From Patescibacteria group bacterium (GTDB lineage: Bacteria; Patescibacteriota; Minisyncoccia; Phycocordibacterales; Phycocordibacteraceae), in NCBI GenBank assembly GCA_040388985.1, contig JAZKAU010000002.1, positions 311,642-375,641 on the forward strand: 64,000 bases of DNA. Direction: 5' to 3'. Below the pieces are notes generated by a model, which worked only from the letters and a program-made list of their open reading frames with translations, ran no database searches and was not told where the DNA came from. Both the position numbers and the translations under genes were made by a program. Of this stretch, positions 66-34,326 are shown piece by piece. Within the stretch, counting starts at the first letter, position 1. The number at the start of each line of letters is the position of its first letter.

Positions 66-1536
<1,471 letters not shown>

Positions 1537-1550
<14 letters not shown>

Positions 1551-2421
1551 CGAACAGATTCAGGTAGAGAGAATCACCTCGGCGCAGCCGGGCAGGAAAT
1601 TCTTGCTATTCGGCGCGGTCCACGGGAACGAGCCATGCGGACCGCTCGCCATAGAGAGGGTCTTGGAACGTATACGTTCAGGAGAGGTCGCGCTTTTGGG
1701 CGGCGAACTCATTGCGGTTCCGGTCGCCAATCCCGGAGCATATGCTGAAGATGCGCGCTTTCTCGAGGACAACCTCAATCGCGTCTTCAGAAAGACCGAA
1801 CTCCCGGAAACGTACGAAGCACGGCTCGCGAACGTGCTCGCGCCGTTCATAGAAGAGACTGATATCTTCCTCGACATCCACTCGACGAGCGCGCCTGGGC
1901 CCACATGCGTATTCATAGATTATCCGACGCCCGAGAATATCGCCTTTGCGGGTGCGCTCGGCATGGACTACGCGATAACCGGCTGGTCCACAGTCTATGC
2001 GAACAATCCTGCCGGTCTCGACTCCTATGACACGACCCGGTATACGTATGAGCAGGGGAAGACGGGCGTGATCATCGAATGCGGACAGCATGCAGAGCCT
2101 ACGGCAGCCGCGATTGCTGAGCGCTCCATACTCCGGGCACTCGCTCACTTCGGCATGATAGATCCCCTCGGAACGGACACACCGCGCACGAAGACGCGCA
2201 CGGTCCGGATGCATACCCTGCAGTACAAGCACGCTCCAGGCGACGTCTTCAGTAGTCGCTTCGAACACCTCGAACCTCTGGTCGAGGGGGCCGTAATTGC
2301 AACTCGCGAAAGCGGGGAGCCGCTCGTCGCGCCTCGGGATGCGGTGATGGTAATGCCTAAACACACGGCGCAGCCGGGCGGCGAGTGGTTCTATCTGGGA
2401 ACAGAGGAGGATCCGATATAA
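1537..2421 (+). CDS. succinylglutamate desuccinylase/aspartoacylase family zinc hydrolase
   Basis: FGAVHGNEPCG motif typical of AstE/AspA family; start moved to internal ATG (MEPSSEQ) overlapping upstream stop by 14 nt. Confidence 0.6.
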
Positions 2422-2465
2422 CTGCTATCAGGGGCTAGATAAGGTGCTATGATTTCCACATCTCC

Positions 2466-3005
2466 ATGACCCATTGGTTTCAGGCACATAAGCGAAAGAT
2501 TCAAGAGATAGGCGCAGGACTATTTATCTGGGAAAGCTGGAATTTCCTGTACGACTGGCTCTTCTATCCCTTTGCGATCGCGTATTGGGGCGTCGTCGCA
2601 GGCGGCATACTCGTCACCGTCATCTCCGTCATCGTAAACGGCTTCGTATTCTGGCTCTATGAGTACATGCGCGTCGACTGGCTCGGCGCGCACGCGCTGC
2701 GCGAGCTCGAAGATAAGGAGAATAAGAGCAATATCGAGAAGCTTGCCACGTGGCTCGGAAAGCAAAAGACGACGCTGCGCGAGAAGATACTCAGCCCTAT
2801 AGTCTTCATCGGTCTTACCTTGCCGATCGATCCACTCATCGTGGCCATACATTACCGCAAGAATCATTTCCGCGGCTTAGGCACCCGCGACTGGCTGCTC
2901 CTCATAGGCGCGACGCTTGCCGCTAATGCCTGGTGGCTCCTCAAGATCGGCCTCATCGTCGAGGCTGCTAAATTCCTCTGGTTACATTTCCTCTTGCTTA
3001 TCTGA
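2466..3005 (+). CDS. hypothetical integral membrane protein
   Basis: several hydrophobic helices; no recognisable motif. Confidence 0.45.
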   Translation: MTHWFQAHKRKIQEIGAGLFIWESWNFLYDWLFYPFAIAYWGVVAGGILVTVISVIVNGFVFWLYEYMRVDWLGAHALRELEDKENKSNIEKLATWLGKQKTTLREKILSPIVFIGLTLPIDPLIVAIHYRKNHFRGLGTRDWLLLIGATLAANAWWLLKIGLIVEAAKFLWLHFLLLI

Positions 3006-3006
3006 T

Positions 3007-3846
3007 ATGAGCGAGCCATCACCTGACGAACTCACCGTTGACAGGATTGCTTCCGACCGGAGCCTCTTCAACTCATTCGTGTATACGCCGTGGGAGGAGG
3101 CTATAGAGGAATGTAAACGCCGTGAGAATGACCCCGTGCTCGCCGCGTATGTGGAGCGCACGGTCCGTGCGGGCATACCTCCCATCATGAACGGGAAGAA
3201 AAGTATGGTGCTCTTCCGCCATGTGCTGACGCCCAATTACGAGGTGCACCGGTTTCTCGTAGCGGCCGATGCCTTTCCGGAATTCCAACCGCTCGTTCTC
3301 GAATACACGAAAGATAAATATACCAATCGCAACGACTGGAAATTCTCGCTAGGGAAGATGAGCTTCCATAAAGGACATACGAGAACGAACGAGACCATCG
3401 TGGAGAATAAGACCATCATCGATATGAACGATAGCAACTTCAAGCCTATCGATTCTATCCGCACGCATTGGGGGCAGAACCTGGTCGAGTTCCACCATGA
3501 GCTGTTCGATACAGCCTACCCGAATTTCAAGAATCTCCGCTTCGACCTTTCCGACTGGATACACGAGGCAGGACCCTCGCCCAAGGAGTATTATAAGAGC
3601 TTCATCGCGCTCTTCCTGCGGAACGGAATACTCTTCGAGAATTTTCTCGTCGACAGCAAGGAATACAACTTTACGAAGGAGATCATCCTGCCGGCCTTCC
3701 TCGAGCTGTATGCGGAGAGCGGTCATAAGCCGCTCATCGTCGCGCTCGAGCCGACCGACATAGAAGGCGATCGCTTCTGGCATTCGCATCCGTTCGTGCG
3801 CAAGGATGCTGTCGATGCGAAGGAGCGCGGGACACCGAGCGCCTGA
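3007..3846 (+). CDS. hypothetical protein
   Basis: ATG immediately after upstream stop (MSEPSPDE...); long ORF, no recognisable motif. Confidence 0.45.
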   Translation: MSEPSPDELTVDRIASDRSLFNSFVYTPWEEAIEECKRRENDPVLAAYVERTVRAGIPPIMNGKKSMVLFRHVLTPNYEVHRFLVAADAFPEFQPLVLEYTKDKYTNRNDWKFSLGKMSFHKGHTRTNETIVENKTIIDMNDSNFKPIDSIRTHWGQNLVEFHHELFDTAYPNFKNLRFDLSDWIHEAGPSPKEYYKSFIALFLRNGILFENFLVDSKEYNFTKEIILPAFLELYAESGHKPLIVALEPTDIEGDRFWHSHPFVRKDAVDAKERGTPSA

Positions 3847-3912
3847 TATACCCAGCTGCGAAGCGATATATCGGGTTCAGAGGCGAGCTCTGGGGGTATA
3901 CTTAGCTCATTC

Positions 3913-4368
3913 ATGCGTAGTCCACGGTATTTTCTCGTGCTCAGCATCGCGGCGATACTCGGCATCGTAGGCTATCGCTACGACCAGTATCTCGTCGAGA
4001 AGCAGTATACGTTGCGTGTCGACGTCTCCTGTGATTCGGCAGCCGAAAGCTGCTTCGCGGCTGACTGCACGCCTGACAGCGGTCCGGATTGCGATCCGAC
4101 GCCATATAAGAAAGTAGAGATACGCGCAGCGGACGCGCCTGCGTGCCTCGAAGAGCATTCCTGCGAGCACTTTTCCTGTGCAGGTATCGCGTCATGCACC
4201 CTATCACTCTGCAGCGGAGACGTGCTTGAGGACGGCGAGAAATGTGCAACTCCTGACACAGATAGCGACAGTGCTGCGGATACTCCTCCAGACCAGGTCT
4301 CTGCGCCTGCATCCGAGATGGAAAGGTCTTCAGCGATACCCACAGCGAGCACGTCCGCTCCCCGATAG
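3913..4368 (+). CDS. hypothetical Cys-rich secreted/membrane-anchored protein
   Basis: N-terminal hydrophobic helix, multiple CxxxC/CxxC pairs, acidic Ser/Asp-rich tail; GGGTATACT -10-like box ~10 nt upstream. Confidence 0.45.
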   Translation: MRSPRYFLVLSIAAILGIVGYRYDQYLVEKQYTLRVDVSCDSAAESCFAADCTPDSGPDCDPTPYKKVEIRAADAPACLEEHSCEHFSCAGIASCTLSLCSGDVLEDGEKCATPDTDSDSAADTPPDQVSAPASEMERSSAIPTASTSAPR

Positions 4369-4371
4369 CCT

Positions 4372-6024
4372 ATGCACTTAGAATCCCTCATACACGTCCA
4401 ATACTGTTACGACTATCTGATAGAGCAGATACCGGTGGGCTTGCTCGTCTATTCCCATATCCCGACCGCTATCGCAGCGCTTCTCTTCGGCGGCTACGTG
4501 CTCTGGAAGACGCGTAATCTTCCGAGCACCATGCTTTTCATAGTTTGCGTCGCCTTTGCCGCGTGGTGCTTCGGAGACCTCGGATCCTGGTTCTCCTTCC
4601 TGGGATCGGCACAGACGATGTTCCTGTGGGCGCCGCTCGATTTGTTTGCCGTCATCTTCTTCTATTTCGCATACTACTTCCTCTATACTTTCGTCACTAA
4701 ACACGACATCCCGCTCTGGCAGAAGATACTCAGTATCGTTCTCATACTGCCCACGGCTATCGCGACCTTGCTCGGAACGAATCTCACGGCATATGACGCT
4801 AATACCTGCGAAGCCGTAGAGAACGCACGCATAACGGCGTACCCGTATTTCGTGGAAGCGATCGTACTCCTTGGATCGTTGGTCTTCTCGATCCGGCACT
4901 ACCTACGGACTACGGATATGCAGCTCAGGAGAGAAGGACTGCTTGCCGGTATCGGCGTCATCACCTTCCTGGGCTTCTTCCTCACGTCCACGCTTGCCGT
5001 CAAGCTCCTCGTCAACTACAGTGTCGGCGATTACGCCTATAACTATGAGATATACGGATTGTTCGGGATGCCAATCCTTCTCATGTACCTCGGCTATCTC
5101 ATCGTCCGCTATCATGCCTTCGACCTGCGCATCTTCGGTACGCAGGCGCTCGTGCTCGCGCTCATCGCGCTCATCGGAGCTGAATTCGCATTCGTGACTT
5201 CTGTAACCAATAGAATTCTTGTCGGCATCACGCTCGTCCTGACCGGCTTCATCGGCCTCATCCTTATCAGGAGTGTGCGCCGGGAGATAGAGCAGCGTCA
5301 GCGCATCGAGCTGCTCGCAAAGGACCTCGGGGTATCAAACAAGCAGCAGGAGACGCTCATCCGCTTCATCAGCCATCAGTTGAAAGGTTTCATCGCAAAA
5401 TCCCGGAACATCTTCTCCATGATCCAGGAGGGTGACTACGGCACACCGCCGGAGACCATGAAAGCCGTCATCGCCGAAGGCTTCAACTCCTCGACTAAGG
5501 GCGCGCAGACCATCCAGGAGATACTGAATGCGTCCAACATAAAGAGCGGTAAGGTCACCTATATGAACCAAGCCTGTGATTTCAAGGCGCTCCTCGAAGG
5601 CGTGGTCGCGGGACTCAAGCCCGCAGCTGACGCCAAGGGAGTTACCCTTACGCTTGTCATGCCGAGCGAGCCGGTGCCGTGTATGGGCGACAAGATGCAG
5701 ATGGAGAATGCGCTTAGGAATCTCATCGATAACTCGATCAAGTACACGCCGACCGGGAGTATCACCGTCACCCTCACGCAAGGAGAAGGGAAACTGCGAT
5801 TGGTCCTACAGGATACGGGCGTGGGCATTACGCCCGAGGATATGCAGCATCTCTTCACCGAGGGTGGTCATGGTGCCGAGAGTCAGAAGGTGAACATCGA
5901 CTCCACCGGCTTCGGGCTCTACATCGTGAAGAACATCATCGAGGCACATAAAGGGAAGGTGTGGGCGCAGAGTGAGGGCGCGGGCAAAGGCTCAACTTTC
6001 ACCGTCGAGCTCCCAATCTCCTGA
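4372..6024 (+). CDS. sensor histidine kinase with large N-terminal multi-TM sensor domain (orphan, no adjacent response regulator)
   Basis: ~8 predicted TM helices, then HisKA region (FISHQLKGF) and HATPase_c (DTGVGI, GFGLYIVKNIIEAHKG). Confidence 0.8.
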   Translation: MHLESLIHVQYCYDYLIEQIPVGLLVYSHIPTAIAALLFGGYVLWKTRNLPSTMLFIVCVAFAAWCFGDLGSWFSFLGSAQTMFLWAPLDLFAVIFFYFAYYFLYTFVTKHDIPLWQKILSIVLILPTAIATLLGTNLTAYDANTCEAVENARITAYPYFVEAIVLLGSLVFSIRHYLRTTDMQLRREGLLAGIGVITFLGFFLTSTLAVKLLVNYSVGDYAYNYEIYGLFGMPILLMYLGYLIVRYHAFDLRIFGTQALVLALIALIGAEFAFVTSVTNRILVGITLVLTGFIGLILIRSVRREIEQRQRIELLAKDLGVSNKQQETLIRFISHQLKGFIAKSRNIFSMIQEGDYGTPPETMKAVIAEGFNSSTKGAQTIQEILNASNIKSGKVTYMNQACDFKALLEGVVAGLKPAADAKGVTLTLVMPSEPVPCMGDKMQMENALRNLIDNSIKYTPTGSITVTLTQGEGKLRLVLQDTGVGITPEDMQHLFTEGGHGAESQKVNIDSTGFGLYIVKNIIEAHKGKVWAQSEGAGKGSTFTVELPIS

Positions 6025-6144
6025 CCAGAGGCGTTTACGAGATTTCCTCGCATGCGGCTCCGGCGTTGAATATACGGGCTTCGCGTAGTAAGGTGTTCCT
6101 ATCGCTGACGTGCGCAGGCTTTCGTCAGCTGGATTCTCTCATTT

Positions 6145-6218
6145 GCTGGCGTAGCTCAGGTAGTTAGAGCATAGGACTCATAAACCTAAGGTCGGAAGTG
6201 CAAGTCTTCCCGCCAGCA
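6145..6218 (+). tRNA. tRNA-Met (CAT), CCA not encoded, atypical T-loop (G at position 55)
   Basis: acceptor GCTGGCG/CGCCAGC, anticodon loop CTCATAA, T-arm GGAAG-TGCAAGT-CTTCC; hand-folded. Confidence 0.65.
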
Positions 6219-6400
6219 CAAAGTGGTTATCGCGAGCTTGGTGCTGGCGGAGAACCCTGCCTGCGCAGGGTTCGTGAAGACTTGCAAGGCGGAGTCATGT
6301 CGCGAAGCGACGGCGAGCCCGGGTCGGGACTGCGAGGACGAATGCGAATGCTTGGAGCATTCGGCCCGCAGATCGTGACCAAGTCTTCCCGCCAGCACCA
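6219..6400 (+). ncRNA. GC-rich structured segment ending in a duplicated tRNA 3' end with CCA (possible tRNA-associated ncRNA or integration scar)
   Basis: 19-nt exact repeat of tRNA-Met 3' end at 6380-6398 followed by CA; 12-bp long-range helix TGGTGCTGGCGG(6239-6250)/CCGCCAGCACCA(6389-6400); internal hairpins. Confidence 0.35.
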
Positions 6401-6446
6401 ACTTGTATTCCCGAACGGAAAACGTTATATTCCATAGGTTAACCAT

Positions 6447-6523
6447 GCGGCTGTAGCTCAGCTGGTTAGAGCGATCGCCTGTCACGCGATAGGTCGCCGG
6501 TTCGAGTCCGGTCAGCCGCGCCA
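6447..6523 (+). tRNA. tRNA-Asp (GTC), CCA encoded
   Basis: acceptor GCGGCTG/CAGCCGC, D-arm GCTCAGCTGGTTAGAGC, anticodon loop CTGTCAC, T-arm GCCGGTTCGAGTCCGGT. Confidence 0.85.
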
Positions 6524-6526
6524 ACA

Positions 6527-6556
6527 ACAAAGCCGCCCATATGGGCGGCTTTGTGC
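6527..6556. terminator. bidirectional Rho-independent terminator hairpin (AAAGCCGCCCATATGGGCGGCTTT)
   Basis: perfect 9-bp GC-rich stem flanked by A/T runs between convergent tRNA-Asp and minus-strand gene. Confidence 0.6.
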
Positions 6557-6586
6557 GTGCGAGGGGTGAATACGTCTGTAAAGACT

Positions 6587-7594
6587 TTAGTACAGCGGAG
6601 CTACTACTATTGATGTGGCGGTGTGTGCGCTTGAGCCGCTGTCATCCGTCACCGTAAATGCTGGAGCGTAAGTGCCTGCGCGTCCATATGAATGGGTAAA
6701 TGTTCCGCTTGTGCTTATGGTGGTTGGCTGAGGAGCCATGATATTGGCGCCGCTCGTCGCATATTGCTCATTGCCCCAGAGTACTGAGTAATGCAGGTTG
6801 CCTGAACCGCTATCTGTAAGAACGCGTACCGTCCAGGTTCCTTGCTGTCCAAGGGCTAGCGTTGTGGGTGCGTCTAAGCCGCTAATCGAGAGAGTTTGCT
6901 GGCTACCTGTTCCCACCTGTATCACTACCGTACCGATAGGCATGGTCGCGATCATGCAGCGAGGCTCGCTCCACATACAACCGATATAGCGTTCGAGAGT
7001 AGCGGTGTACGTACCACTCGAAGTGTAGGTGTGTGTCGAATGAACTCGCGGGCAGCCCGCAGGATTATTAAGGGTGCCCATGCACACATTTACCGCGTCC
7101 AGAGCGCCGCTGTTTGAACCGTCTCCGTACTCAATGACATATTGATTGCCACCAGTAAGGCCGGACCCAGAAAAGTCTACCGAAAGAGGTGCAGAGCCTG
7201 AAGTAGGAGTAGCGGAGAGGGGAGTGTCTGTGGGGAAGGAGTTTGGACTACAGTGTCGTTGTATGAAGGCCCGGGTAAGGGGGCCCACATATCCTGTTGC
7301 AGGAACGCCGTTGGCTGACTGGAAGGCTATTACTGCCTTACGGGTTATCGGTCCGAAGTGACCAGTACCCATATTCACTGAATCAAAGAACCCTTGTGTC
7401 ACAAGGTATTGCTGTAAAGAGGTAACCTCGCCTGTTGTAGTCGTGTCGTCCGCGCCATATCGCATATTTACTACAGGAGAAAAGCAAGCCGGGCCTGCTC
7501 CTGTACCGTCAGTTTGGGCAGAAGCGACCGAAACGCTAGAAAAGAGCATGGTAATTACAAGCAATGCGCCGGGGAGTATTTGGTATGGTTTCAT
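6587..7594 (-). CDS. secreted protein with peptidoglycan-binding (PG_binding_1-like) domain and Thr/Ser/Gly-rich beta domains
   Basis: signal peptide MKPYQILPGALLVITMLFSSVSVASA (start trimmed from ORF 6587..7747); LQQYLVTQGFF...GHFGPITRKAVIAFQ motif. Confidence 0.55.
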   Translation of the reverse strand: MKPYQILPGALLVITMLFSSVSVASAQTDGTGAGPACFSPVVNMRYGADDTTTTGEVTSLQQYLVTQGFFDSVNMGTGHFGPITRKAVIAFQSANGVPATGYVGPLTRAFIQRHCSPNSFPTDTPLSATPTSGSAPLSVDFSGSGLTGGNQYVIEYGDGSNSGALDAVNVCMGTLNNPAGCPRVHSTHTYTSSGTYTATLERYIGCMWSEPRCMIATMPIGTVVIQVGTGSQQTLSISGLDAPTTLALGQQGTWTVRVLTDSGSGNLHYSVLWGNEQYATSGANIMAPQPTTISTSGTFTHSYGRAGTYAPAFTVTDDSGSSAHTATSIVVAPLY

Positions 7595-7810
7595 TACTAT
7601 AGTATGACGTGTTGTTGAGCTAACTCTTACCCGCCGTTGCGTGACTGGAGGATCATAGAAAACCAAGAGAGATATCAACACAGCTACGTCTAAGTACGTA
7701 CAGTGGTTCCAACAGCGTCCACGAGGTCGCGCGAACAATAAAGCCATCCTCTGGGCGGCTGTGTGTTTCGGTAAACGGAACTGCTATGCTTAGGCCATCC
7801 ACCAAGATTT

Positions 7811-8794
7811 ATGGAGGCTACCCAGACAATAGAGAGCATCCTCGCTTATTGCGCTAAAGAAGGCCTGGATATAGACGCTTCCACGCTTGCTCCTCTGGAT
7901 AGCGCGGGGTTCATGAGCCGAGTACTAACTGCGCGCTCCGACAAAGGCGAAGTCGTCATAACTATCGTCGCGCAGCCGGTGCCGGAACAGCTCTATCAGG
8001 GTGGTGGTGAGAAGATTCTAAAAGTAGGGAGGTTATTAGCGGGCGTGCCTCAGATTCCCCACATATACCTTACCGGCCCGTTGCCCAATAAGGGGTACTT
8101 CATAGTCCAAGAACGCAAACCAGGCACGCCGCTTGGCAGACGCGTGTATTCAGGAGGAACATTTGTTGATGAGTTCTTAGTCGAAGATCCGCAGAGACTC
8201 GTGGAAGAACTTGAAGAAGTAATACTCCAGATACACGAGCATCGATTCACGAGCTTCGGCTACATAGACCTGCAAGCGAGCGCGATACAGGGATCGCACG
8301 CCTCATGGCCTGAATTCTTACTGGATAATTTCAAGAGAAATATATCTATGCTTGAAGCTGCAGAAGCTTCTCATGGAGTCTCGTACTTTAGTGCGGTCTC
8401 TGCGGATGAGTTCAGAAGAAAGATTGAAGATCTGCTCTCCCTAAACAGGGAATGCTTCGAGATCGAGAGCGCCAGTCTCATCCATGGCGACGTGCTCAAC
8501 TACAGCAACGTGTTGGTAGAGGACGGGAAGGTCACCGGAGTCGTGGATCTCGAATGGGCGCTCTTAGGACATCCCGCATGGGAATTCGTATTCAGAAAAC
8601 AACCTCCGATTGGCCGCTATGTGCCCTTGGCTAAGCAGAAAGGGCTCATTCCGCCAGATATAGACTTCAAGCGTTCAGTCGCACTCCACAACATATTCTG
8701 GTGCGCATGGGGTGCTTCAGTCCACGCGACGAATCCAGAGTTCGGCTCAGCGCTTTTTAAATCCTTCATAACTAGCTTACAATCAGAGGTATGA
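7811..8794 (+). CDS. APH/choline-kinase-like phosphotransferase (protein-kinase fold)
   Basis: catalytic-loop-like LIHGDVLNYSNVLVEDGKVTGVVDLEWA (HGD...N...D motif of aminoglycoside/homoserine kinase II family). Confidence 0.6.
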   Translation: MEATQTIESILAYCAKEGLDIDASTLAPLDSAGFMSRVLTARSDKGEVVITIVAQPVPEQLYQGGGEKILKVGRLLAGVPQIPHIYLTGPLPNKGYFIVQERKPGTPLGRRVYSGGTFVDEFLVEDPQRLVEELEEVILQIHEHRFTSFGYIDLQASAIQGSHASWPEFLLDNFKRNISMLEAAEASHGVSYFSAVSADEFRRKIEDLLSLNRECFEIESASLIHGDVLNYSNVLVEDGKVTGVVDLEWALLGHPAWEFVFRKQPPIGRYVPLAKQKGLIPPDIDFKRSVALHNIFWCAWGASVHATNPEFGSALFKSFITSLQSEV

Positions 8795-9675
8795 CCGAAC
8801 GTCTCCGATCTGAGGCTACTGCACAAGATCAGCCACCATCTGAGGAGGCTGCATTCGAAGCGTTCTTCACGCGCCATGGCGCTGCCCTATATCTAGAGAA
8901 TGGACGTATCCTTCGCTCGGATAGCCCTGAAGCCACGCCGAACTTCAAGGGGTTGCTGCGTCCAGATCTCGACCCTCAGAAGATCGAGGCTGTCCATAAG
9001 GCAGCTGAGAAGCTTCTAGGATCGCTTAACCCCGATACCGATGAGCTCTTCATCGTGTCTAGCGACATCCCTCGAGCTATTGAGACCGCAGACATCTATC
9101 GGCAGATAGCTCACACGCTAGGCTTTACTGTCATACGACACGAAGACAGACAGGTTCGTGACGACTTCGCCCGGGATAGCGCCGAAAGCGAGATACGGAC
9201 CCTCCCGAGCCTCGGTCTCAGGGTGGAGAACCTTCTGAATCTCGCCCTATTTAGCCCGGAGACAACAGAGGAGGACATCAACTGGAGCGGAGTGAGCTCG
9301 GAAGCAAGAGAGAAGTGGAGGAAGGCGCGTGCCCTCATCGACCAGGATAGCAGGGCTAACTGGGGAGAGAATTTCGTGGCCCATGCAGACGAGATCGGAA
9401 AGCTGTACCCCGATATAGCGAGAGCCAAGGCGGCATACGTACAGGGCTTCCAGAATCTCTTGAGGCTCGCCAAGTTTGCGAAGAGGAAGAGCGAGACATT
9501 GGCACCAGGGAGGAAGATCAAGGTGCTCGCATTCGGTCATGAGAACTACATACGCCCGTTTCTCAGTGAGAACTTCGGCGACGCAGGTTTTGACAACGTT
9601 GAGACCATAAAGGTAGAGGTGGGCGAGCCTGTCACTATTGAACGCAGGGGCGTGCGTAAATCGCTCGAGGACTGA
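8791..9675 (+). CDS. histidine phosphatase superfamily protein (PGM-like, branch 1)
   Basis: N-terminal FTRHGAALY (RHG motif) and downstream AFGHEN second His; ATGA overlap with upstream gene. Confidence 0.5.
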   Translation: MTERLRSEATAQDQPPSEEAAFEAFFTRHGAALYLENGRILRSDSPEATPNFKGLLRPDLDPQKIEAVHKAAEKLLGSLNPDTDELFIVSSDIPRAIETADIYRQIAHTLGFTVIRHEDRQVRDDFARDSAESEIRTLPSLGLRVENLLNLALFSPETTEEDINWSGVSSEAREKWRKARALIDQDSRANWGENFVAHADEIGKLYPDIARAKAAYVQGFQNLLRLAKFAKRKSETLAPGRKIKVLAFGHENYIRPFLSENFGDAGFDNVETIKVEVGEPVTIERRGVRKSLED

Positions 9676-9709
9676 TTGCGGCAAGTAGCCTCCTTGGTAC
9701 TATTACCTG

Positions 9710-10198
9710 ATGAGCACGTACCATATCGAGGGAGTTGCTGGTACCGGGAAAAGTACTGTTTCTGAAGACCTAAGGAAAAGGGGATACCGCGTCGTCGATG
9801 CTGATGTGCTGTGCTATTACGGCGATCCGAAGACGGGCGAGCCTGCGGAGAAGTCTCCATTGAACTGGATCTGGCCCAAATCAGAGATCCTTGCGCACAT
9901 AACAGATGCAAACGGTGAACCGCTCTTTATCTGTGGCCGAGCCATGAATCAGGACGACTTCGAGCCTTACTTCAAGAAGACCTTCCTACTGAAGATAGAT
10001 GACGAGACTCTGAAATATCGGCTCGCTACCAGAACCAATAACGACTATGGCAAACATCCGGACGATCTGGCCCTTCAGTTGAAATGGAATGCCGAAGAAC
10101 TCGAGGCTGCTCGACACAAAGGGGCAATAGTCATCGACGCGACGCTCCCGCCTGATGAGGTCGTTACTGAAATACTGCGGCATGTTCAGGAAGGATAG
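9710..10198 (+). CDS. small P-loop NTPase/kinase (adenylate-kinase-like fold)
   Basis: Walker A GVAGTGKST at N-terminus, 162 aa. Confidence 0.55.
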   Translation: MSTYHIEGVAGTGKSTVSEDLRKRGYRVVDADVLCYYGDPKTGEPAEKSPLNWIWPKSEILAHITDANGEPLFICGRAMNQDDFEPYFKKTFLLKIDDETLKYRLATRTNNDYGKHPDDLALQLKWNAEELEAARHKGAIVIDATLPPDEVVTEILRHVQEG

Positions 10199-10218
10199 AC
10201 GTTCAACCCATCTCCGCT

Positions 10219-10248
10219 CGCAAGGCCGCCCTCTGGGCGGCCTTGCGT
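10219..10248 (+). terminator. Rho-independent terminator hairpin (GCAAGGCCGCCCTCTGGGCGGCCTTGC)
   Basis: perfect 12-bp stem just downstream of stop codon. Confidence 0.6.
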
Positions 10249-10290
10249 TTCAGCCTGCAGGACTTCAAGACCGGGGGGTATACTTAAGCT

Positions 10291-11112
10291 ATGAGTGAGA
10301 AGATCGAATCAGCAGGACCCAAGGCTACAAATGTTTCGGAATCTGTGCCTCCGGTTGAAACGCCTGAGGGTGAGCGGAAGCCCGAGCTGATAATCGATTT
10401 CATACGACATGGCACGACCGCGTACGGACCCGCTCTTGAGCAGAAACTCCGGGATATCGGACAAGATCCGGAGATATTCACGCTTATGCCGGCAGTCGAT
10501 GGTTCGATCGAAGACGCGCGTGAGCAGCTAGAAGGCAGGGTAACCCAGGAAGGAGAGGAGGGACTGCGAGAGTCTATACGTGAGCTATGCAAGCGAATCG
10601 ACCCGAAGAAGGAGATAGTCGCGATAGCGCACGGTACCCGGACACGGCATGAACAGTCGACCGATATCATCGCTGACGAACTGCGCAAGAACGGTATCGA
10701 CGTAGTGAGGGTGAAGCCCCATAAGAACCTGGTGGATGTTCAAGGAGGCGGCTGGTACAGCTTCGTGGACTACATCATGAATCACCAGGGCAAGACCGAG
10801 GCAGATCTCGAAGCATTCTGGTGGGAGATGTATCAGGATGAAGAGACACGTTCAGCCATGAATGCAGCCGGTTACGAGAACCTCGCCGATGTTGCTAAGC
10901 GTACCGAATATTTCGTCGAGATACTGAGGCGTTTCGTGAGGAGACATGCTCTTGGCAAGACGCTGCGCGTCATTGCTGTAACGAGCGACGTGAATATCGA
11001 GCAGATCCAGCAGGCCGGGATTCCTATGGAAGAACGTAATCAGATCTGGCCTGCCAATGCAGAGATATATGAGGTGGGATTCGAGGCTTTGGATACTGCT
11101 ACGCAACCATGA
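10291..11112 (+). CDS. histidine phosphatase superfamily protein (PGM-like)
   Basis: DFIRHGTTAYG (RHG) and IVAIAHGTRTRHE (AHG second-His motif); GGGTATACT box 6 nt upstream of ATG. Confidence 0.6.
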   Translation: MSEKIESAGPKATNVSESVPPVETPEGERKPELIIDFIRHGTTAYGPALEQKLRDIGQDPEIFTLMPAVDGSIEDAREQLEGRVTQEGEEGLRESIRELCKRIDPKKEIVAIAHGTRTRHEQSTDIIADELRKNGIDVVRVKPHKNLVDVQGGGWYSFVDYIMNHQGKTEADLEAFWWEMYQDEETRSAMNAAGYENLADVAKRTEYFVEILRRFVRRHALGKTLRVIAVTSDVNIEQIQQAGIPMEERNQIWPANAEIYEVGFEALDTATQP

Positions 11113-11723
11113 ATGAGGGAAAGATAATCGCAATAACCGGAGGTCCGCGCAGCGGCAAGAGCACGCTCGTGAAGCTCCTGTCACAGCGGCTTGGCGCAAC
11201 GCCCTTTCTCGAAGGAGAGGAGAAGGATTTTCCCACGAGAATCATCGACGACATCGCGCAGGGAGATAATCAGCTCGAACTTGTGCTGTATTTCAGGAAC
11301 CTGCTCATCAAGCAGTATGCCGAGGCTCTCAGGATAAAGCAGGAAGGAAAGATAGCTGTCCTTGATTGTTTCTGGCTCACGAATCAGGTGTATATCGACG
11401 CCTGGGTGCCGGATGAGTTTCAAAGGAGTCTTCTGACGGAGCTTACTAATCTAGATATGCAGACATATCCGTGGCCGGACGCCGTCCTGGTACTCACTCA
11501 GTCAGACGAGGGTATCAGAGAATTCATACAGCTTGGCGGAAGGGAATTCGAGAATAATGCTGAATACTTCGAGCGGCAGCTAGCTATCCATAGGCAGCAT
11601 GATCGTTTCTTCAAGGAGATGGAACAGCGACATCCCAACGTCGTCTTCTTTGACCGTACAGGACTCGACTTCATGGGAAAAGAAGAAGACCTTGAACGAG
11701 TTCTGAGAATCTTGCCTCTCTAA
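11109..11723 (+). CDS. deoxynucleoside kinase family protein (dNK/dAK-dGK-like)
   Basis: IAITGGPRSGKST P-loop, LEGEE, LGGREFENN (RGREFE-like LID) architecture matching dNK family; ATGA overlap with upstream gene. Confidence 0.6.
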   Translation: MNEGKIIAITGGPRSGKSTLVKLLSQRLGATPFLEGEEKDFPTRIIDDIAQGDNQLELVLYFRNLLIKQYAEALRIKQEGKIAVLDCFWLTNQVYIDAWVPDEFQRSLLTELTNLDMQTYPWPDAVLVLTQSDEGIREFIQLGGREFENNAEYFERQLAIHRQHDRFFKEMEQRHPNVVFFDRTGLDFMGKEEDLERVLRILPL

Positions 11724-11822
11724 AGATTCGTATCACCACCTTTAGCACTGCCAGTATTTATAAAGTCAGACGGACCTTCATTCTCCATCGTTATCAACAC
11801 GAACGTATGAGAATACGGAACG

Positions 11823-12506
11823 GTGCCGTATGATTTGCGTATGGCTTTAGACCTCTCCGCTATCCGGACCTTCCTGCGCATAAACGGCATCACGGATACG
11901 AGCTCGGAAAGGGAGGTCCGGGACATGCTCCTGAAAGCGCATTACTCGGAGGCGGAGATTAGCGCGTATTTGTCTTCGCAGAATGCTGTACGCCCTGCTC
12001 CCGTTTCTGCCGTCGCTCCGGCAGAAACGTATGTGGCGCCCGCACCCGCTCCCGTAGTAAATCGTAGTCCCGTTGATATACCATCCCCTATCGTACGCAG
12101 CACTATGACTGCACCTCCAGCTCCGGCCGCGAGTGTAGATGTACGTAAGGGCAGATTCCAGGGAAGAGTGAACAGGAAGAATTATTTGTTCGGGAGTCTT
12201 GTCTTGCTGCTGACCTCTAGTTTGATGCTGCTATTTCCTCGACTGTTTGCGCACAATATCTATGTGGTATTTTTCGTTACCATCGTGCTAGTCGGCATAG
12301 TGGTCATCTTAGGGATATCACTCACCGTACGTCGCCTTCACGACATCGGCCATTCGTGGCTCCTGCTCCTCCTGAATCTCATCCCGTACGTGAATATCGG
12401 ACTCTTCATCTATCTCCTGGTGCGCAAAGGGTCTATAGGACCCAACGCGTATGGAGACCTCGTATCTCCCCAGCCATTCTGGAAGACCTTCTTCGCAGTT
12501 GCGTAG
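11823..12506 (+). CDS. DUF805-family membrane protein with Pro/Ala-rich N-terminal region
   Basis: RLHDIGHSWLLLLLNLIPYVNIGLFIYLLV resembles DUF805/YhaH motif; TM helices. Confidence 0.55.
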   Translation: MPYDLRMALDLSAIRTFLRINGITDTSSEREVRDMLLKAHYSEAEISAYLSSQNAVRPAPVSAVAPAETYVAPAPAPVVNRSPVDIPSPIVRSTMTAPPAPAASVDVRKGRFQGRVNRKNYLFGSLVLLLTSSLMLLFPRLFAHNIYVVFFVTIVLVGIVVILGISLTVRRLHDIGHSWLLLLLNLIPYVNIGLFIYLLVRKGSIGPNAYGDLVSPQPFWKTFFAVA

Positions 12507-12509
12507 CGT

Positions 12510-12776
12510 ATGACGGAAGAACAGCTCACTTCTCCTCTCATTGCGGCAGCGTTCCTGACATTATTCGCGACATTCTTCCTGGCATCCGTAGTAGGAATGG
12601 AACCGATACGCGCAGGCAGTAATCTCTACATGACGATTGTCATTCCGATCACTCTATTCATATCAGCATTCTACTTCGCGTATACGCTGTACACGAAAGG
12701 ACATAGGGTATACATGGCAGGAGCACTCATCATATCTCTGTTGCTCGGCGGCTTCTTCCTGTACTCGTATTTCTAA
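12510..12776 (+). CDS. small hypothetical membrane protein (3 TM)
   Basis: hydrophobic 88-aa ORF directly after DUF805 gene. Confidence 0.4.
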   Translation: MTEEQLTSPLIAAAFLTLFATFFLASVVGMEPIRAGSNLYMTIVIPITLFISAFYFAYTLYTKGHRVYMAGALIISLLLGGFFLYSYF

Positions 12777-12937
12777 AGATTCTTAGCCTGGGTGACGTAT
12801 GACTATCGTCAGCGAAGTCGGTGTAGACCTTAAAGAACGTCTGCGGACAAAGGGCTACTACGGTTAGTAAGAATTGATTTCTACACGGATGAGCATATAG
12901 TCAACATGGATGTGGCCACTAGAGAAAGGAGGCGACC

Positions 12938-13621
12938 ATGTACATCCCCATCAGCCTCCTCAGGAGGCACGTTCGAGAGAGCAATCTCATCGAGAATATC
13001 CGTTATCGTTCCGGCGTCCGGTTGGTCGCAAGCCATCTGAACGCTGCTGTACAGGTCGTGCGACGCACCGCTCGCGGTGAGCTTCTGGATCCTTTGCACA
13101 TCCATTCGCTGCTGTGCCGCGGCACCAGCATGGAAGGTTTCGGCGGAAAGAAACGTACCTGTAATGTATGCGTTGGCAAGTACGATATGCCGAGGTGGAG
13201 GGAAGTCACGCGACTTCTTAACTTGTGGCGCGGTACCGTCCAGTATTACGACAAGCGTATGAAGGATGCCCCGAAAAAGGAACGGGAACGTATTGCTCGA
13301 ATCCTCCACGAACTATTCCTCTGCGTACATCCGTTCGAAGACGGGAACGGTAGGACCTCACGACTCATTCTGAATATGCTGCGGCTTCGCTGGGGACTTG
13401 AGTGGCTGGTCGTTGAGAATCGCCGGAAAGGATTCTATTACCGGCAGATACGGCATACGCAGGACACGATCTTCAGGCCGTGCTACCCGAATGTCTTCCC
13501 GGAAGATGAGCGGCGGCGCTTGCGACGCCGTCTCGAAGCGGAACGAGCCTGGATAGACGCTTACGAGGATTTGCCGACCGGTAGGGTCTCGATGCGAAAT
13601 TCGATCCGCCCTCGTCGGTAA
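12938..13621 (+). CDS. Fic/Doc family protein (class II, intramolecular inhibitory helix)
   Basis: Fic motif HPFEDGNGRTSR; N-terminal SNLIEN matching [ST]xxxE[GN] inhibitory motif. Confidence 0.8.
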   Translation: MYIPISLLRRHVRESNLIENIRYRSGVRLVASHLNAAVQVVRRTARGELLDPLHIHSLLCRGTSMEGFGGKKRTCNVCVGKYDMPRWREVTRLLNLWRGTVQYYDKRMKDAPKKERERIARILHELFLCVHPFEDGNGRTSRLILNMLRLRWGLEWLVVENRRKGFYYRQIRHTQDTIFRPCYPNVFPEDERRRLRRRLEAERAWIDAYEDLPTGRVSMRNSIRPRR

Positions 13622-13728
13622 GGGCGCAATGACGTGAATCAGACCCGTGCTCGAACACAGGCACACCGGCCACTCCCCACAGGGTGGCCGGTTCACGTAT
13701 CTCTTGGTAGGTGTGCTAGCATTTCGAC

Positions 13729-15003
13729 ATGATCCATCGCCGGAGGTTCGGAGCGCACCATAAGAAACCGAGTGCTGCAGGAACGCATTCCTCTATATAT
13801 CTTGTGTGCGCGATGATGCTCTTCTGGACGCTTTCGGAAGGGATGGTGTCTTTCATTGTGCCGCTCAAGATACAGAATGCCGGCTTCACCGATACGATGC
13901 TCGGCGTCATCATCGGCACATCCTCTATCGCGGGCGCGCTATTCGATCTCGTCGCGTGCCGCCTCTTCAGGAATATCTTCTACAAGCGCATATTCGGGTT
14001 CATGTTCATCCTGTGCCTATCATTCCCACTTATCTTGATGCATGCAGGAACGCTTCTTGCCTTCGTCATAGGAATGGGCGTATGGGGGGTCTACTACGAT
14101 CTGCGTAATATCGGGAACTTCGACTACATCGCTCGCACCACGGTGCGAAGTGACAGCACGCGTGCCTTCGGCCTCATCCAGGTATTCCAGTCAGTGGGCT
14201 GGATACTCGGACCGATCATCGTCGGCTTTCTTGCAGGAGAGGCGGTGGGTTGGAAGCCGTTCGCGGCGATCTATGTATTTCTGGGCCTCGCCTTCTCCTT
14301 CTTTATTGCTCTCTGCGTCGCGGCAGGGAATAAGCGGGCGCTCGAGAATAGTCATAAGGAAAAGGAGTGCCGGCGCGGAACTTGGTCGGAGGCCAGGATG
14401 CTCGGGTCCGTCGGACGCGTCCTGTTCCCGACGCTGCTCGCCGTATTCTTCATCAACTTCGTCGACTCATTCTTCTGGAGTATCGGCCCTTTGTTCGCCG
14501 AAGCGCTTAAGCTCGGCTTCCTCGCGGGACTTCTCATGACCGCATGGTCCTTGCCGTCGATGCTGCTCGGCTGGCACGCGGGAAGGATCGCTGCCAGGTA
14601 CTCGAAGGAGCGCACGGCTTACGGCGCGCAATTCGCGAGCGCGCTCTGCCTCATACCTATCTTCTTTGTGTCCTCAGGAGTGGCTGTTGTCGCCATGGTC
14701 TTCGTCGCAGCTTCCTTCGCAGCCATCGCCATCCCTGCCTTCCAGAGCATGTTCACGGACTATATAGAGGTTCGTGGCGACCTGGAGAAAGAGATAGAAA
14801 GCCTCGAGGATCTCTACACGAATCTCGGCTACGTATTCGGACCTATCCTCGCAGGTTTCTCCTCTGATCTTCTGGGCTTCAATACGACGTTCGGCATTCT
14901 CGGCGCGGTAGTCGCGCTCATCGGATTCGCGCTCATCATCGTCGACCGCAGAGACACGGTGCCCTTCGTGCAGAAGGCCCCGCCCCTCATCTGCGATATC
15001 TAA
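13729..15003 (+). CDS. MFS transporter
   Basis: 12 predicted TM helices, MFS-like loop motifs (GALFDLVACRLFRN); exact start uncertain. Confidence 0.7.
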   Translation: MIHRRRFGAHHKKPSAAGTHSSIYLVCAMMLFWTLSEGMVSFIVPLKIQNAGFTDTMLGVIIGTSSIAGALFDLVACRLFRNIFYKRIFGFMFILCLSFPLILMHAGTLLAFVIGMGVWGVYYDLRNIGNFDYIARTTVRSDSTRAFGLIQVFQSVGWILGPIIVGFLAGEAVGWKPFAAIYVFLGLAFSFFIALCVAAGNKRALENSHKEKECRRGTWSEARMLGSVGRVLFPTLLAVFFINFVDSFFWSIGPLFAEALKLGFLAGLLMTAWSLPSMLLGWHAGRIAARYSKERTAYGAQFASALCLIPIFFVSSGVAVVAMVFVAASFAAIAIPAFQSMFTDYIEVRGDLEKEIESLEDLYTNLGYVFGPILAGFSSDLLGFNTTFGILGAVVALIGFALIIVDRRDTVPFVQKAPPLICDI

Positions 15004-15059
15004 GTAGCTGTTTTTGAGCTTGCGTTCCTGGGATAAGAAATCGGGTATACTGTCCGCAT

Positions 15060-15536
15060 ATGCAGAATGACTTCCGGCTCATCAACTCCTTCATCTTCTA
15101 CGTTGCTGTCCTTTTCTTCCTAGGAATCGGTGCAGCCACCCTTCCGCAGCTTCCTTGGTACTACGCGCTTACTCGGCCGGTCTGGACGCCTTCGCATGTA
15201 GTCGTCTCGACCATCTGGCTTCTCATCTTCCTTTCGACCGCAGCTTCGCTGTCAAAATATTGGGACACGGTGACGCATGACCGAACCTTCAGGTGGACCG
15301 TCCGGATGTATGCAGGCATGGCGCTCCTGGTCCTGCTCTGGAATTATCTCTTCTTCGGCGCGCATATGGTCGCGCTTTCCGTCTGGGCCGCAGCCCTCGT
15401 TACTCTCGCTATACTCGCTATCCTTCTGCGGGTACGAACGGCATCAGCCAAGGCTGCACTATACATGGTCCCGTTCCTGGTCTGGGGAATCTTTGCGACC
15501 TATATCGTCCACGTCATCGCTCTCTTGAACCCCTAA
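15060..15536 (+). CDS. TspO/MBR (tryptophan-rich sensory protein) family membrane protein
   Basis: LPWYYALTRPVWTP, LWNYLFFG, VPFLVWGIFAT motifs and 158-aa size match TspO; GGGTATACT box 8 nt upstream. Confidence 0.65.
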   Translation: MQNDFRLINSFIFYVAVLFFLGIGAATLPQLPWYYALTRPVWTPSHVVVSTIWLLIFLSTAASLSKYWDTVTHDRTFRWTVRMYAGMALLVLLWNYLFFGAHMVALSVWAAALVTLAILAILLRVRTASAKAALYMVPFLVWGIFATYIVHVIALLNP

Positions 15537-15585
15537 GTGCCTTTGTTCGCCTTTACATGCGTCGAATACCTTATAGGGTAGGGAC

Positions 15586-16317
15586 ATGACTCCCGAGAAC
15601 CGGAACAGCAATCAAGAGCAGTGGGACGCGGAATATCGCGCTTCGCAGATGCTCTCGCCATCGAATATTCCCCAGGCGGATGTCGTACGCTTTACGCGCT
15701 GGCTCAAGAAGGAGGGCAAGCGCGCGGGACGTCCGCTCGAGATCGACGAGATGACCGTACTTGATCTTGGAAGCGGTACGGGGCGCAACAGCTTCTACTA
15801 TGCCCAGCAAGGAGCAACTGCCATAGGCTACGAGCTTTCCGAGACGGCGCTCGCTATGGCGCAGAAGTTCGCCCGTCATGGCGAGCTCGCCATCGATTAC
15901 CGGAGACAGGATATCGGCGCGCCGTATCCGCTACCGGACGCATCCGTAGATATCGTGCTTGATATCACGTCTTCCAATTCGCTGAGCGATGCGAAGCGCG
16001 AGGTATATCTCTCGGAAATTTCCCGAGTACTTAAGCCGGGCGGTCATATGCTCGTGCGGGCGCTTGCCAAGGAGGGGGACGCCAACGCGAAGACGCTCAT
16101 CGCGCGCGCTCCTGGCGCTGATCCTGATACCTATGTGCACCCGGATCTGGGCATCATCGAGAAAGTCTTCTCTCGCAAGTCCTTCAGGGAGACTTATGGC
16201 AGGTTCGAGATCCTCGAACTCGAACGAGTGAGCCATTACAACGCCGTTGCGGGCCGGAAGTATAAGAGAAACTACTGGATCGCGTATATGCGCAAGCCTA
16301 GTAAGCCGGTGGATTGA
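15586..16317 (+). CDS. class I SAM-dependent methyltransferase
   Basis: motif I VLDLGSGTGRNS, motif post-I/II (YELSETAL, VDIVLD), LKPGG motif. Confidence 0.8.
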   Translation: MTPENRNSNQEQWDAEYRASQMLSPSNIPQADVVRFTRWLKKEGKRAGRPLEIDEMTVLDLGSGTGRNSFYYAQQGATAIGYELSETALAMAQKFARHGELAIDYRRQDIGAPYPLPDASVDIVLDITSSNSLSDAKREVYLSEISRVLKPGGHMLVRALAKEGDANAKTLIARAPGADPDTYVHPDLGIIEKVFSRKSFRETYGRFEILELERVSHYNAVAGRKYKRNYWIAYMRKPSKPVD

Positions 16318-16494
16318 GATTTGTAAGGAAATCAGATAGGATAGCGGGGTGCGATGTAGAGAGGGTTAGTCGATAGAAGATGGCCTCGCCGATGGAAGAA
16401 CACAATCTCGAAGACTCGAAAGGTTTTTCCATCACGGCTCTCTCGGGCGAAAAGAAATATGCATAAGAATGCAGATTTCTTTTACCCTCGTTCG

Positions 16495-16566
16495 CCGATG
16501 TAGCTCAGGGGTAGAGCAACTCCATGGTAAGGAGTAGGTCGGCAGTTCAATTCTGCCCATCGGCTC
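16495..16566 (+). tRNA. tRNA-Thr (GGT), CCA not encoded
   Basis: acceptor GCCGATG/CATCGGC, anticodon stem ACTCC/GGAGT, loop ATGGTAA, T-arm GGCAGTTCAATTCTGCC. Confidence 0.8.
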
Positions 16567-16667: not shown

Positions 16668-16740
16668 GCCGAAGTAGCTCAGTTGGTAGAGCATTTCACT
16701 CGTAACGAAAAGGTCGCCGGTTCAATCCCGGCCTTCGGCT
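16668..16740 (+). tRNA. tRNA-Thr (CGT), CCA not encoded
   Basis: acceptor GCCGAAG/CTTCGGC, anticodon loop CTCGTAA, T-arm GCCGGTTCAATCCCGGC. Confidence 0.75.
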
Positions 16741-16875
16741 CAAAGAGTTTGTGCGACATTATTATTCTTGATACATTAGCCTTCTGGCCCGATACGATTT
16801 CACCTCTCGGGCCAGGGACGCTCGGCGTGTTAATCCTGAGCCAAGGCCGTGCTCCGCACGCCGAGCGTCCGCTCT

Positions 16876-34014: not shown

Positions 34015-34326
34015 CTATTAATTGATGCCAGACTGGTGGCTGGTGCATAGTCTATGCAGAACTAGTCTTTCGTCGCATGGTCGCGAAGGCCTTAGCAAAG
34101 GGTAGGAACTGCGATAATATGAAGAAGTAGTACAGGGCTATGTATTACCTCAATATGGCCTAAACCGAGCAATTGCCCGGCATGGCCGAATAACCGCGAC
34201 CAGCATAGAAAACCCGTCATCAGGGCGCTGGTCGCGTTACCAGGGGAAACTCTGGTATGTCCTTCGGGACTCCTGGTGGCGGGTTTTGTGCTACCCACCA
34301 GAATTACAAATCGCGACCAGCAACAT

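Follow-up and report, generated by a model that had tools for sequence, protein, structure and literature searches.

In the 64,000-nucleotide (nt; 64-kb) stretch of a Patescibacteria genome analysed here as a whole, called the window below, a tRNA-Met gene at 6145-6218 is followed by a strongly structured segment that ends in a second copy of the gene's own 3' end. Judging from the comparison with related loci, this arrangement is a 179-bp insertion into the 3' end of tRNA-Met that took place in this lineage only. The feature is real and non-random, and its origin as a lineage-specific insertion is well-supported; regarding the kind of event, we tentatively read it as the att-like (attachment-site-like) footprint of a site-specific insertion, of which a palindromic remnant, miniature or decayed, is left. 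Among features of a known kind it is an unusual variant, and the searches made gave no sign of a function or of a wider family. The features of this locus between 6066 and 6523 are read on the plus strand, unless stated otherwise.

Direct repeats and the empty site in relatives

The left direct repeat (6201-6219) corresponds to tRNA positions 56-74 and completes a functional tRNA gene, and the right direct repeat (6380-6398) is followed by the native CA, placing CCA at 6398-6400; with the CAA after this copy, the sequence reads ...ACCA. The recurrence of the last 19 nt ahead of CA, which an earlier note on this DNA had reported, is exact: the 19-mer CAAGTCTTCCCGCCAGCAC is present exactly twice in the 64 kb, and the chance expectation for a 19-nt repeat is 0.01, allowing up to three mismatches. 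Between both copies lie 160 nt unique to the insert (6220-6379), which together with one copy of the repeat make up the 179 bp.

The insert is absent from seven related loci, namely L043 and six further ones that are syntenic for the histidine kinase (HK) gene, tRNA-Met and tRNA-Asp. Those described here (L043, L044, L045, L052, L053 and L056) keep this gene order, and none of them has the 160-nt module. Relatives thus lack both the duplicated 3' end and the structure, an outcome that had been named beforehand as the mark of a lineage-specific scar. The closest relative found, the Joint Genome Institute (JGI) contig L043, was picked up as the sole locus in a metagenome scan with a 29-mer from the T-arm and acceptor; it shares 68% DNA identity with the window in the kinase gene and 100% across the 75 nt of tRNA-Met, the TGCAAGT loop and the A31.A39 mismatch being common to both. 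There the gene ends in ...CAGCACCA (...CAGCACCAcac), with CCA encoded and with neither repeat nor insert. Another tRNA-Met allele is found in L044, L052 and L053, whose Met-Asp spacers measure 52-68 nt. When the 51 nt after the right repeat are aligned to the spacers of L053, L044 and L052, the z-scores against shuffles are 5.6, 4.8 and 3.6, respectively, the right flank and the spacers having in common a -35-like CTTGTAT and a -10-like TATATTC, compared to a z-score of about 0 for the same length of sequence behind the left repeat. Since only the right repeat has a 3' flank homologous to the spacers of the relatives, this copy is the original 3' end, displaced by the insertion. Deleting 179 bp leaves an intact, CCA-encoding tRNA-Met gene followed by its native spacer, and it is this restoration that points to an insertion of that size; the CCA-less tRNA-Met is a secondary state.

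The gene itself has an intact cloverleaf and is identified as tRNA-Met(CAT) by an Rfam tRNA match of 62.6 bits and by ARAGORN, which calls a complete 75-nt tRNA (6145-6219) instead of the single intron-containing tRNA that the earlier note had held out as an outcome. The absence of an encoded CCA and the atypical T-loop, both described before, were found again: the discriminator A6218 is followed by C and then AAA (...CGCCAGC-A-C-aaag), so that CCA is no longer encoded, and the T-loop is TGCAAGT at 6199-6205 (UGCAAGU in the RNA, with G55), accompanied by A18 in the D-loop and by the A31.A39 mismatch. The atypical T-loop is unrelated to the insertion, since the insert-free L043 shares it. Non-canonical T-loops are also a side feature of the tRNA-Met beside the kinase in the window and in all six related loci, and the changes look compensated, with UGCAAGU and A18-G55 in the window and L043, and with AUCAUUC, an A-U pair at 54-58 and a normal GG in the others. 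This other allele has G18 with U55 and A54...U58, and position 31-39 is mismatched in both alleles (A.A or A.C).

CCA is encoded in three of the six tRNA genes of the window, tRNA-Met being among the three without it. The remaining two without it are the tRNA-Thr genes (GGT, 16494-16566; CGT, 16668-16741), and tRNA-Asp, tRNA-Gln and tRNA-Cys carry it, so CCA encoding is mixed in this genome. As the two tRNA-Thr genes also do without an encoded CCA, the organism is probably able to add it post-transcriptionally, and tRNA-Met would in principle still be functional despite the insert.

The spacer adjoining the CCA of tRNA-Met is an insertion hot spot in this clade. In L045, an NTP-transferase (MobA-like) gene at 4294-4989 lies between tRNA-Met and tRNA-Asp, its ATG overlapping the CCA. 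In L056 (6713-7405), and also in L051, a free-standing LAGLIDADG_3 homing-endonuclease gene fills the Met-Asp spacer; in L056 it starts 22 nt behind a tRNA-Met with a CCA truncated to CC-g, the tRNA-Asp promoter lies inside its 3' end, and no direct repeat was found around it. A remnant of either gene was considered as the source of the 160 nt and set aside, as nucleotide and translated similarity were nil.

Architecture of the insert

Besides the two direct copies, the insert holds an inverted copy of the tRNA 3' end, divided in two parts. The left part, TTGGTGCTGGCGG (6238-6250), is complementary to tRNA positions 65-76 and the base that follows them (chance 0.05), and the right part, GAAGACTTGCA (6276-6286), is the complement of TGCAAGTCTTC, that is, of T-loop and T-stem positions 54-64 (chance 0.02). 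Joined, they read as the reverse complement of the entire 24-nt 3' end of the ancestral tRNA, TGCAAGTCTTCCCGCCAGCACCAA, interrupted by a 25-nt segment that bears the perfect 9-bp hairpin GAACCCTGC-CTGC-GCAGGGTTC (6252-6273). The inverted copy is longer than the direct repeat (24 vs 19 nt), with 2 nt more upstream (TG) and 3 nt more downstream (CAA).

Each part can pair with either direct copy. The left part pairs with 6389-6401 (13/13) or with 6210-6222 (12/13); the former helix contains the perfect complement of 6239-6250 and 6389-6400 that had been described before, and is one nucleotide longer than it. The right part pairs with 6199-6209 (11/11) or with 6380-6388 (9/9), and in the latter case a second helix, between GAAGACTTG (6276-6284) and CAAGTCTTC (6380-6388), covers the remainder of the right repeat. 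Taken together, the two helices (13 bp and 9 bp) leave none of the 22 nt of the right 3'-end copy (6380-6401) unpaired, rebuilding a duplex in the manner of folded att sites.

The inner domain (6287-6379) consists of nested near-perfect hairpins, such as GTCGC-GAA-GCGAC at 6299-6311 and a long one at about 6322-6380, and similarity to nothing was found. Both perfect internal hairpins listed by the earlier note are present, namely GAACCCTGC/GCAGGGTTC and, at 6336-6366, GGACGAATGC/GCATTCGGCC. Moreover, its suspicion that the two open reading frames (ORFs) called here, 6198-6437 on the plus strand and 6186-6530 on the minus strand, are artefacts proved sound: the protein-space matches of the minus-strand ORF are only tRNA-Asp antisense, and for the plus-strand ORF a search of 1.84 billion representatives gave two chance matches and no relatives.

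Folding of the DNA and of the RNA

The plus-strand RNA of the trailer (6219-6402) folds with -98 kcal/mol (z = -6.2 against shuffles), the minus-strand RNA of the segment with -90.8 kcal/mol (z = -7.0), and the fold with DNA parameters reaches z = -7.6. Because both strands and the DNA parameters give equally good folds, the structure is indicated to be a Watson-Crick DNA palindrome with no strand-specific signature, and it is read at the DNA level rather than as a strand-specific RNA.

Two arrangements are predicted for the RNA. When the trailer is folded by itself, the partner of the antisense segment is the right repeat, and the CCA is paired to TGG. In the minimum free energy (MFE) fold of the full transcript, the partner of this segment is the 3' half of the tRNA itself, and it is the tRNA 5' half that pairs with the right repeat, resulting in a tRNA with a 179-nt insertion in its T-loop and a free ACCA. 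Consequently, the proposal of an element closed by a helix with a free CCA tail holds for the helix; the tail is paired in the trailer fold, and it is free only in the fold of the full transcript. Co-transcriptional folding should favour the trailer arrangement over the one with the T-loop insertion.

Assembly support

Over 1372-6521, and so through both repeats, the window agrees with the Logan contig of this locus (SRR26324622) at 100% identity. In addition, a near-identical strain from another assembly (L049) differs by one single-nucleotide polymorphism over the 2449 nt before a scaffold gap and by none over the 842 nt beyond it, and it matches the window exactly until 6381, two bases into the right repeat, confirming the tRNA and 162 nt of the insert. 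After 6381, ten Ns are followed in L049 by a 104-nt patch that replaces 6382-6443 (L049 2450-2563); it opens with a diverged string resembling a tRNA 3' end, ACTCCACCCTCCGGCACCC, then continues with a different tRNA-Asp promoter. This patch may be either a real allele with its boundary inside the repeat or a scaffold chimera formed at the shared tRNA-Asp. If real, the closing helix is not conserved within the species.

Origin of the insert

Reading the insert as the trace of mobile DNA is based on four features, as the repeat runs from the T-loop to the 3' end, the gene is intact upstream, a fragment is left downstream, and the site is empty in relatives. In terms of an integrase footprint, a direct repeat of the 3' part of the tRNA flanks foreign DNA, and the distal repeat stands beside the native flank. 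The stretch from the T-loop to the 3' end was reportedly described by Williams in 2002 as one preferred crossover sublocation of tRNA-targeting integrases. The genes found in the same spacer in L045 and L056, which mark it as an insertion hot spot of the clade, also speak for this reading. Among the options listed by the earlier note, an integration scar that duplicated the tRNA 3' end is therefore the one favoured here, relatives having neither the duplicated 3' end nor the structure and the right repeat carrying the native CCA and spacer.

A native CCA-encoding tRNA-Met gene has thus taken up 179 bp of non-coding DNA bounded by the 19-bp direct repeat, according to this proposal by the action of a recombinase. 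The left repeat and the untouched 5' two-thirds still make up a complete tRNA-Met, now requiring post-transcriptional CCA addition, and the right repeat is the displaced 3' end, still ahead of the CCA, the native spacer and the tRNA-Asp promoter. The rest of the mobile element may have been lost, leaving a self-complementary att-proximal module with the inverted target copy, due to which single-stranded DNA or RNA could fold as a long branched hairpin. At the RNA level, the module would be a passive 3' trailer, its antisense segment being able to pair with either copy of the repeat; if the cloverleaf forms first, as assumed for folding during transcription, the antisense segment would pair with the right repeat, and the trailer would be trimmed off.

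Several observations weigh against a classical integration. The 179-bp insert is too small for a mobility gene, and Pfam scans of 15 large ORFs (66-16317) found no integrase, recombinase, transposase or reverse transcriptase, the neighbouring genes including the histidine kinase, a peptidoglycan-binding/PKD protein, kinases and an MFS transporter. No second copy of the insert was found in the 64-kb window, nor was a related element or an attP-bearing phage or plasmid found in viral contigs, in blastn searches of phages and plasmids, or in the GTDB and JGI collections, the latter yielding only the insert-free L043. The viral contigs were queried with the 19-mer, the hairpin, two inner-domain strings and the L049 patch, giving nothing or chance matches within coding sequence, and an 18-mer scan of 185,579 GTDB species genomes returned 41 matches, none of them a tRNA and none homologous, so that none of these genomes holds a tRNA with this 3' end. 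Furthermore, a near-perfect nested palindrome is not expected of a decayed attP arm, the classical model leaves unexplained why the 24-nt inverted copy overruns the 19-nt repeat by 2 nt and 3 nt, and the differing L049 sequence right of 6381 is not predicted by a simple integration.

Two other classes of mobile DNA were discarded. A miniature inverted-repeat transposable element (MITE) or another miniature element derived from an insertion sequence should have terminal inverted repeats at its very ends, a target duplication of 2-14 bp and multiple copies; here, 18 nt of the insert separate the left inverted-repeat arm from the left boundary, the duplication measures 19 bp, and the locus is single-copy in the 64 kb. 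Meanwhile, 19 bp fits neither casposon nor CRISPR-like staggered integration, and terminal inverted repeats are absent at the ends of the insert.

The strongest competitor, a rather unlikely one in our judgement, is an accident of replication or repair without mobile DNA, in which the tRNA 3' end was subject to template switching or to snap-back synthesis, perhaps triggered by a double-strand break, with a functionless product made of direct, inverted and direct copies, filler and hairpins. The direct-inverted-direct order of three copies of 19-24 nt is the architecture of inverted triplications (PMC4689423), and the origin of perfect hairpins by reverse-complement copying of nearby sequence is documented (PMC8794818). 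It is also notable for this mechanism that the left half of the inverted copy best matches the right repeat and the right half best matches the left repeat, a pattern predicted by two local copying events. Near-perfect Watson-Crick stems with short loops, strands that fold alike, and the finding of neither a mobility gene nor a second copy agree with it as well, and breaks are plausible here, as the free-standing LAGLIDADG gene of L056 occupies the same spacer. However, only the 24-nt inverted copy can be traced to a template: about 130 nt, made up of a linker of 18 nt, the hairpin segment of 25 nt and the inner domain of 93 nt, have no match within the 64-kb window on either strand, and several unrelated templated or untemplated steps would be needed to produce them. 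In addition, the bounds of the repeat, from the T-loop to the CCA, coincide with the integrase crossover sublocation, which an accident does not predict.

An improbable explanation is that the tRNA-Met transcript gives rise to a functional structured RNA, be it a stable small RNA from the 3' trailer, a tRNA-like CCA-ending minihelix or an intervening sequence in a tRNA that closes its acceptor and T stems with the right repeat. The fold is very stable and non-random, as given by its z-score of -6.2, the segment is probably transcribed, as it lies between the tRNA and the next promoter, the full-transcript MFE closes the tRNA with the right repeat around a 179-nt T-loop insertion with a free ACCA, and the T-loop of tmRNA (transfer-messenger RNA) genes is a known site of group I introns (10.1101/2020.01.27.920355). 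Nevertheless, the segment is absent from every relative, including the one with an identical tRNA, and the Rfam search at gathering threshold and at E<=10 over 6050-6600 detected only two tRNAs plus noise. Within 6220-6400, the E<=10 matches were only sub-threshold bits (CRISPR-DR28, 22.6 bits, 6249-6272; Acido-Lenti-1, 13.4 bits, 6299-6314), without Intron_gpI, which the same tool detects in L043 and which thus served as a positive control. On this null result the identities of ribozyme, group I or group II intron, T-box, Y-RNA-like RNA and tmRNA were dropped, and no second tRNA or pseudo-tRNA was found inside the insert on either strand. Moreover, folding is as good for the minus strand as for the plus strand, the trailer-only fold leaves the CCA paired, and the complete tRNA gene upstream makes splicing unneeded; in L049 the closing repeat may even be lost, and a real L049 allele would weaken this explanation still more. 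The tRNA-like RNA or minihelix suggested by the earlier note is disfavoured for these reasons, and its unusual intervening sequence may still apply as a consequence at the RNA level, given the full-transcript MFE with a T-loop insertion, the ARAGORN call of an intron-containing tRNA and a group I signal both being absent.

Slightly less probable again is an intact, non-autonomous hairpin element, moving as a single strand that carries a folded mimic of its tRNA target and is inserted by a recombinase acting in trans through the exchange of one strand. As derived from the layout, such an exchange would predict the order observed, with repeat, linker or rest of the circle, inverted copy, loop and repeat, and the junction of the circle would be GATCGTGAC-CAAGTCTTCCCGCCAGCAC-AAAGTGGTT. 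An inverted copy of 24 nt, longer than the 19-nt direct repeat, fits a folded binding site, and so does the DNA fold with z = -7.6. On the other hand, no recombinase was found in the scanned ORFs and no other copies anywhere searched, the attC R/L box consensus is absent by reading of the sequence, and a 179-nt circle has no precedent known to us. A broader claim is a shade more doubtful than this: Patescibacteria would have a so far undescribed class of tiny integrative elements, non-autonomous and moving as single strands, of which the 179-nt segment would be an intact example. Its hairpin would rebuild the tRNA-Met 3' end in double-stranded form as attachment site, in a tRNA-targeting counterpart of recombination at CTX-phage attP(+) or integron attC. 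Finally, it is barely credible that the duplication and palindrome are an artefact of assembly or amplification, because, although some amplification methods yield palindromic chimeras and the L049 scaffold gap lies exactly at the start of the right repeat, the Logan assembly is identical through both repeats, L049 independently confirms the tRNA and its part of the insert, and about 130 nt of the insert are unique and not rearranged tRNA sequence.

Neighbouring features

Upstream of tRNA-Met lies the HK gene (4372-6024), whose exact sequence is MES2225727.1, carried by a 525-kb contig of a Patescibacteria metagenome-assembled genome, with homologues annotated as Parcubacteria or Paceibacterota. 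It is followed by a promoter-like TTGAAT-17 nt-TAAGGT (6066-6094), kept in position and sequence in the alignment with L043, L044 and L053, and by an extra leader of about 41 nt (6103-6143; window-only columns 38-78 of the alignment) with the hairpin GCTGACG...CGTCAGC at 6104-6130. The leader is absent from all relatives, in which the -10 box is only about 9 nt away from tRNA-Met, and it forms a second lineage-specific palindromic insertion at this gene. A link between the loop of the leader hairpin (6111-6119) and the hairpin of the insert (6259-6267) was considered and rejected, as a 9-nt complement is at chance level for a region of 700 nt.

Downstream, the native Met-Asp spacer (6399-6446) is homologous to those of L053, L044 and L052, and it contains the promoter-like TTGTAT (6403-6408)-17 nt-TATATT (6426-6431) of tRNA-Asp, supported by conservation. 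A scan with strict consensus promoters and terminators made no calls, and both tRNA promoters are proposed from conservation only. The tRNA-Asp(GTC) gene, with CCA encoded (6447-6523), was found by ARAGORN and Rfam, and a terminator-like 14-bp palindrome (6527-6554) comes after it. Two Logan contigs of SRR26324622 stop inside tRNA-Asp with an overlap of 30 nt (window 6492-6521), which suggests a branch of the assembly graph from another population or from a second copy sharing this segment of tRNA-Asp.

In L043, a group I intron measuring some 205 nt splits the anticodon loop of tRNA-Asp(GTC) (843-1079, minus strand); Rfam Intron_gpI matches it with 48.8 bits and E = 4.5e-11, against a gathering score of 50. 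ARAGORN missed the gene, whose exons rejoin as CCTGTC|ACGCGGG, matching the intact genes of L045 and L053. Elsewhere in the window, at 34157-34271 on the plus strand, a LOOT RNA (RF03000) was matched with 69.5 bits, compared to a gathering score of 46.4.

Comparison with known systems

Att-site duplications are left in tRNA genes by elements with tyrosine integrases, such as prophages and genomic islands (for background, PMC5812530). The insert is similar to these in its repeat of the 3' part of the tRNA starting from the T-loop, in the upstream copy that keeps the gene, in the downstream fragment by the native flank and in the empty site of relatives. It differs from them in that it is only 179 bp long, almost wholly palindromic and without integrase or cargo, holds an inverted copy of the target that exceeds the repeat, and comes with no parent element found. 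As such, it provides a clean natural case of a target-site duplication at a tRNA 3' end whose insert contains an inverted copy of its own target. The finding mainly serves annotation: two ORF calls are artefacts, the CCA-less state of this tRNA-Met is secondary, and the fold, striking as it is, gives no evidence of a new RNA gene.

The attP(+) hairpin of CTX phage, used with XerCD and dif, and the attC of integrons are folded single-stranded recombination sites. In both, as may be the case here, an imperfect hairpin of one strand rebuilds the duplex site, and the layout is that of a repeat, an inverted arm, a loop and a repeat. In contrast, the target here is a tRNA gene and not dif or attI, the locus is single-copy and no recombinase was identified; the R''/R' boxes (RYYYAAC/GTTRRRY) and the Xer arms are absent as well, GTTGGTG agreeing in 5/7 positions and the other arm being CTTGGTG. 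To our knowledge, the mobile elements of bacteria of the candidate phyla radiation (CPR) are poorly known, and if more copies of the insert exist, they would point to hairpin-mediated integration into the tRNA genes of CPR bacteria.

Regarding replication accidents, template switching is described as a source of hairpins (PMC8794818) and of inverted triplications (PMC4689423). The short local copies in direct, inverted and direct order, the perfect stems that form in one step and the lack of strand specificity are shared with such products; the difference is that most of the insert is not copied from neighbouring sequence. If it were templated after all, this would be a textbook case of template switching that builds an RNA-like structure of about 160 nt from nothing.

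Among intervening sequences, tmRNA genes are known to be interrupted in the T-loop by group I introns (10.1101/2020.01.27.920355). Like these, and like the intervening sequences of rRNA and the interrupted tRNA genes, the insert is a sporadic, strain-specific and structured insertion, and one of its folds places it in the T-loop. Unlike them, it lacks a group I core, the exon is duplicated, and excision is unneeded for a functional tRNA.

Lastly, retroelements with long terminal repeats (LTRs) have primer-binding sites that are complementary to tRNAs. A similar site is found here, TGGTGCTGGCGG being the exact complement of the 12 3'-terminal nt of mature tRNA-Met, including CCA. The host is nevertheless a bacterium, and neither a reverse transcriptase nor LTRs were found among the large ORFs scanned (66-16317), so this complement, which resembles a primer-binding site, is more simply explained as the inverted copy of the adjacent gene end.

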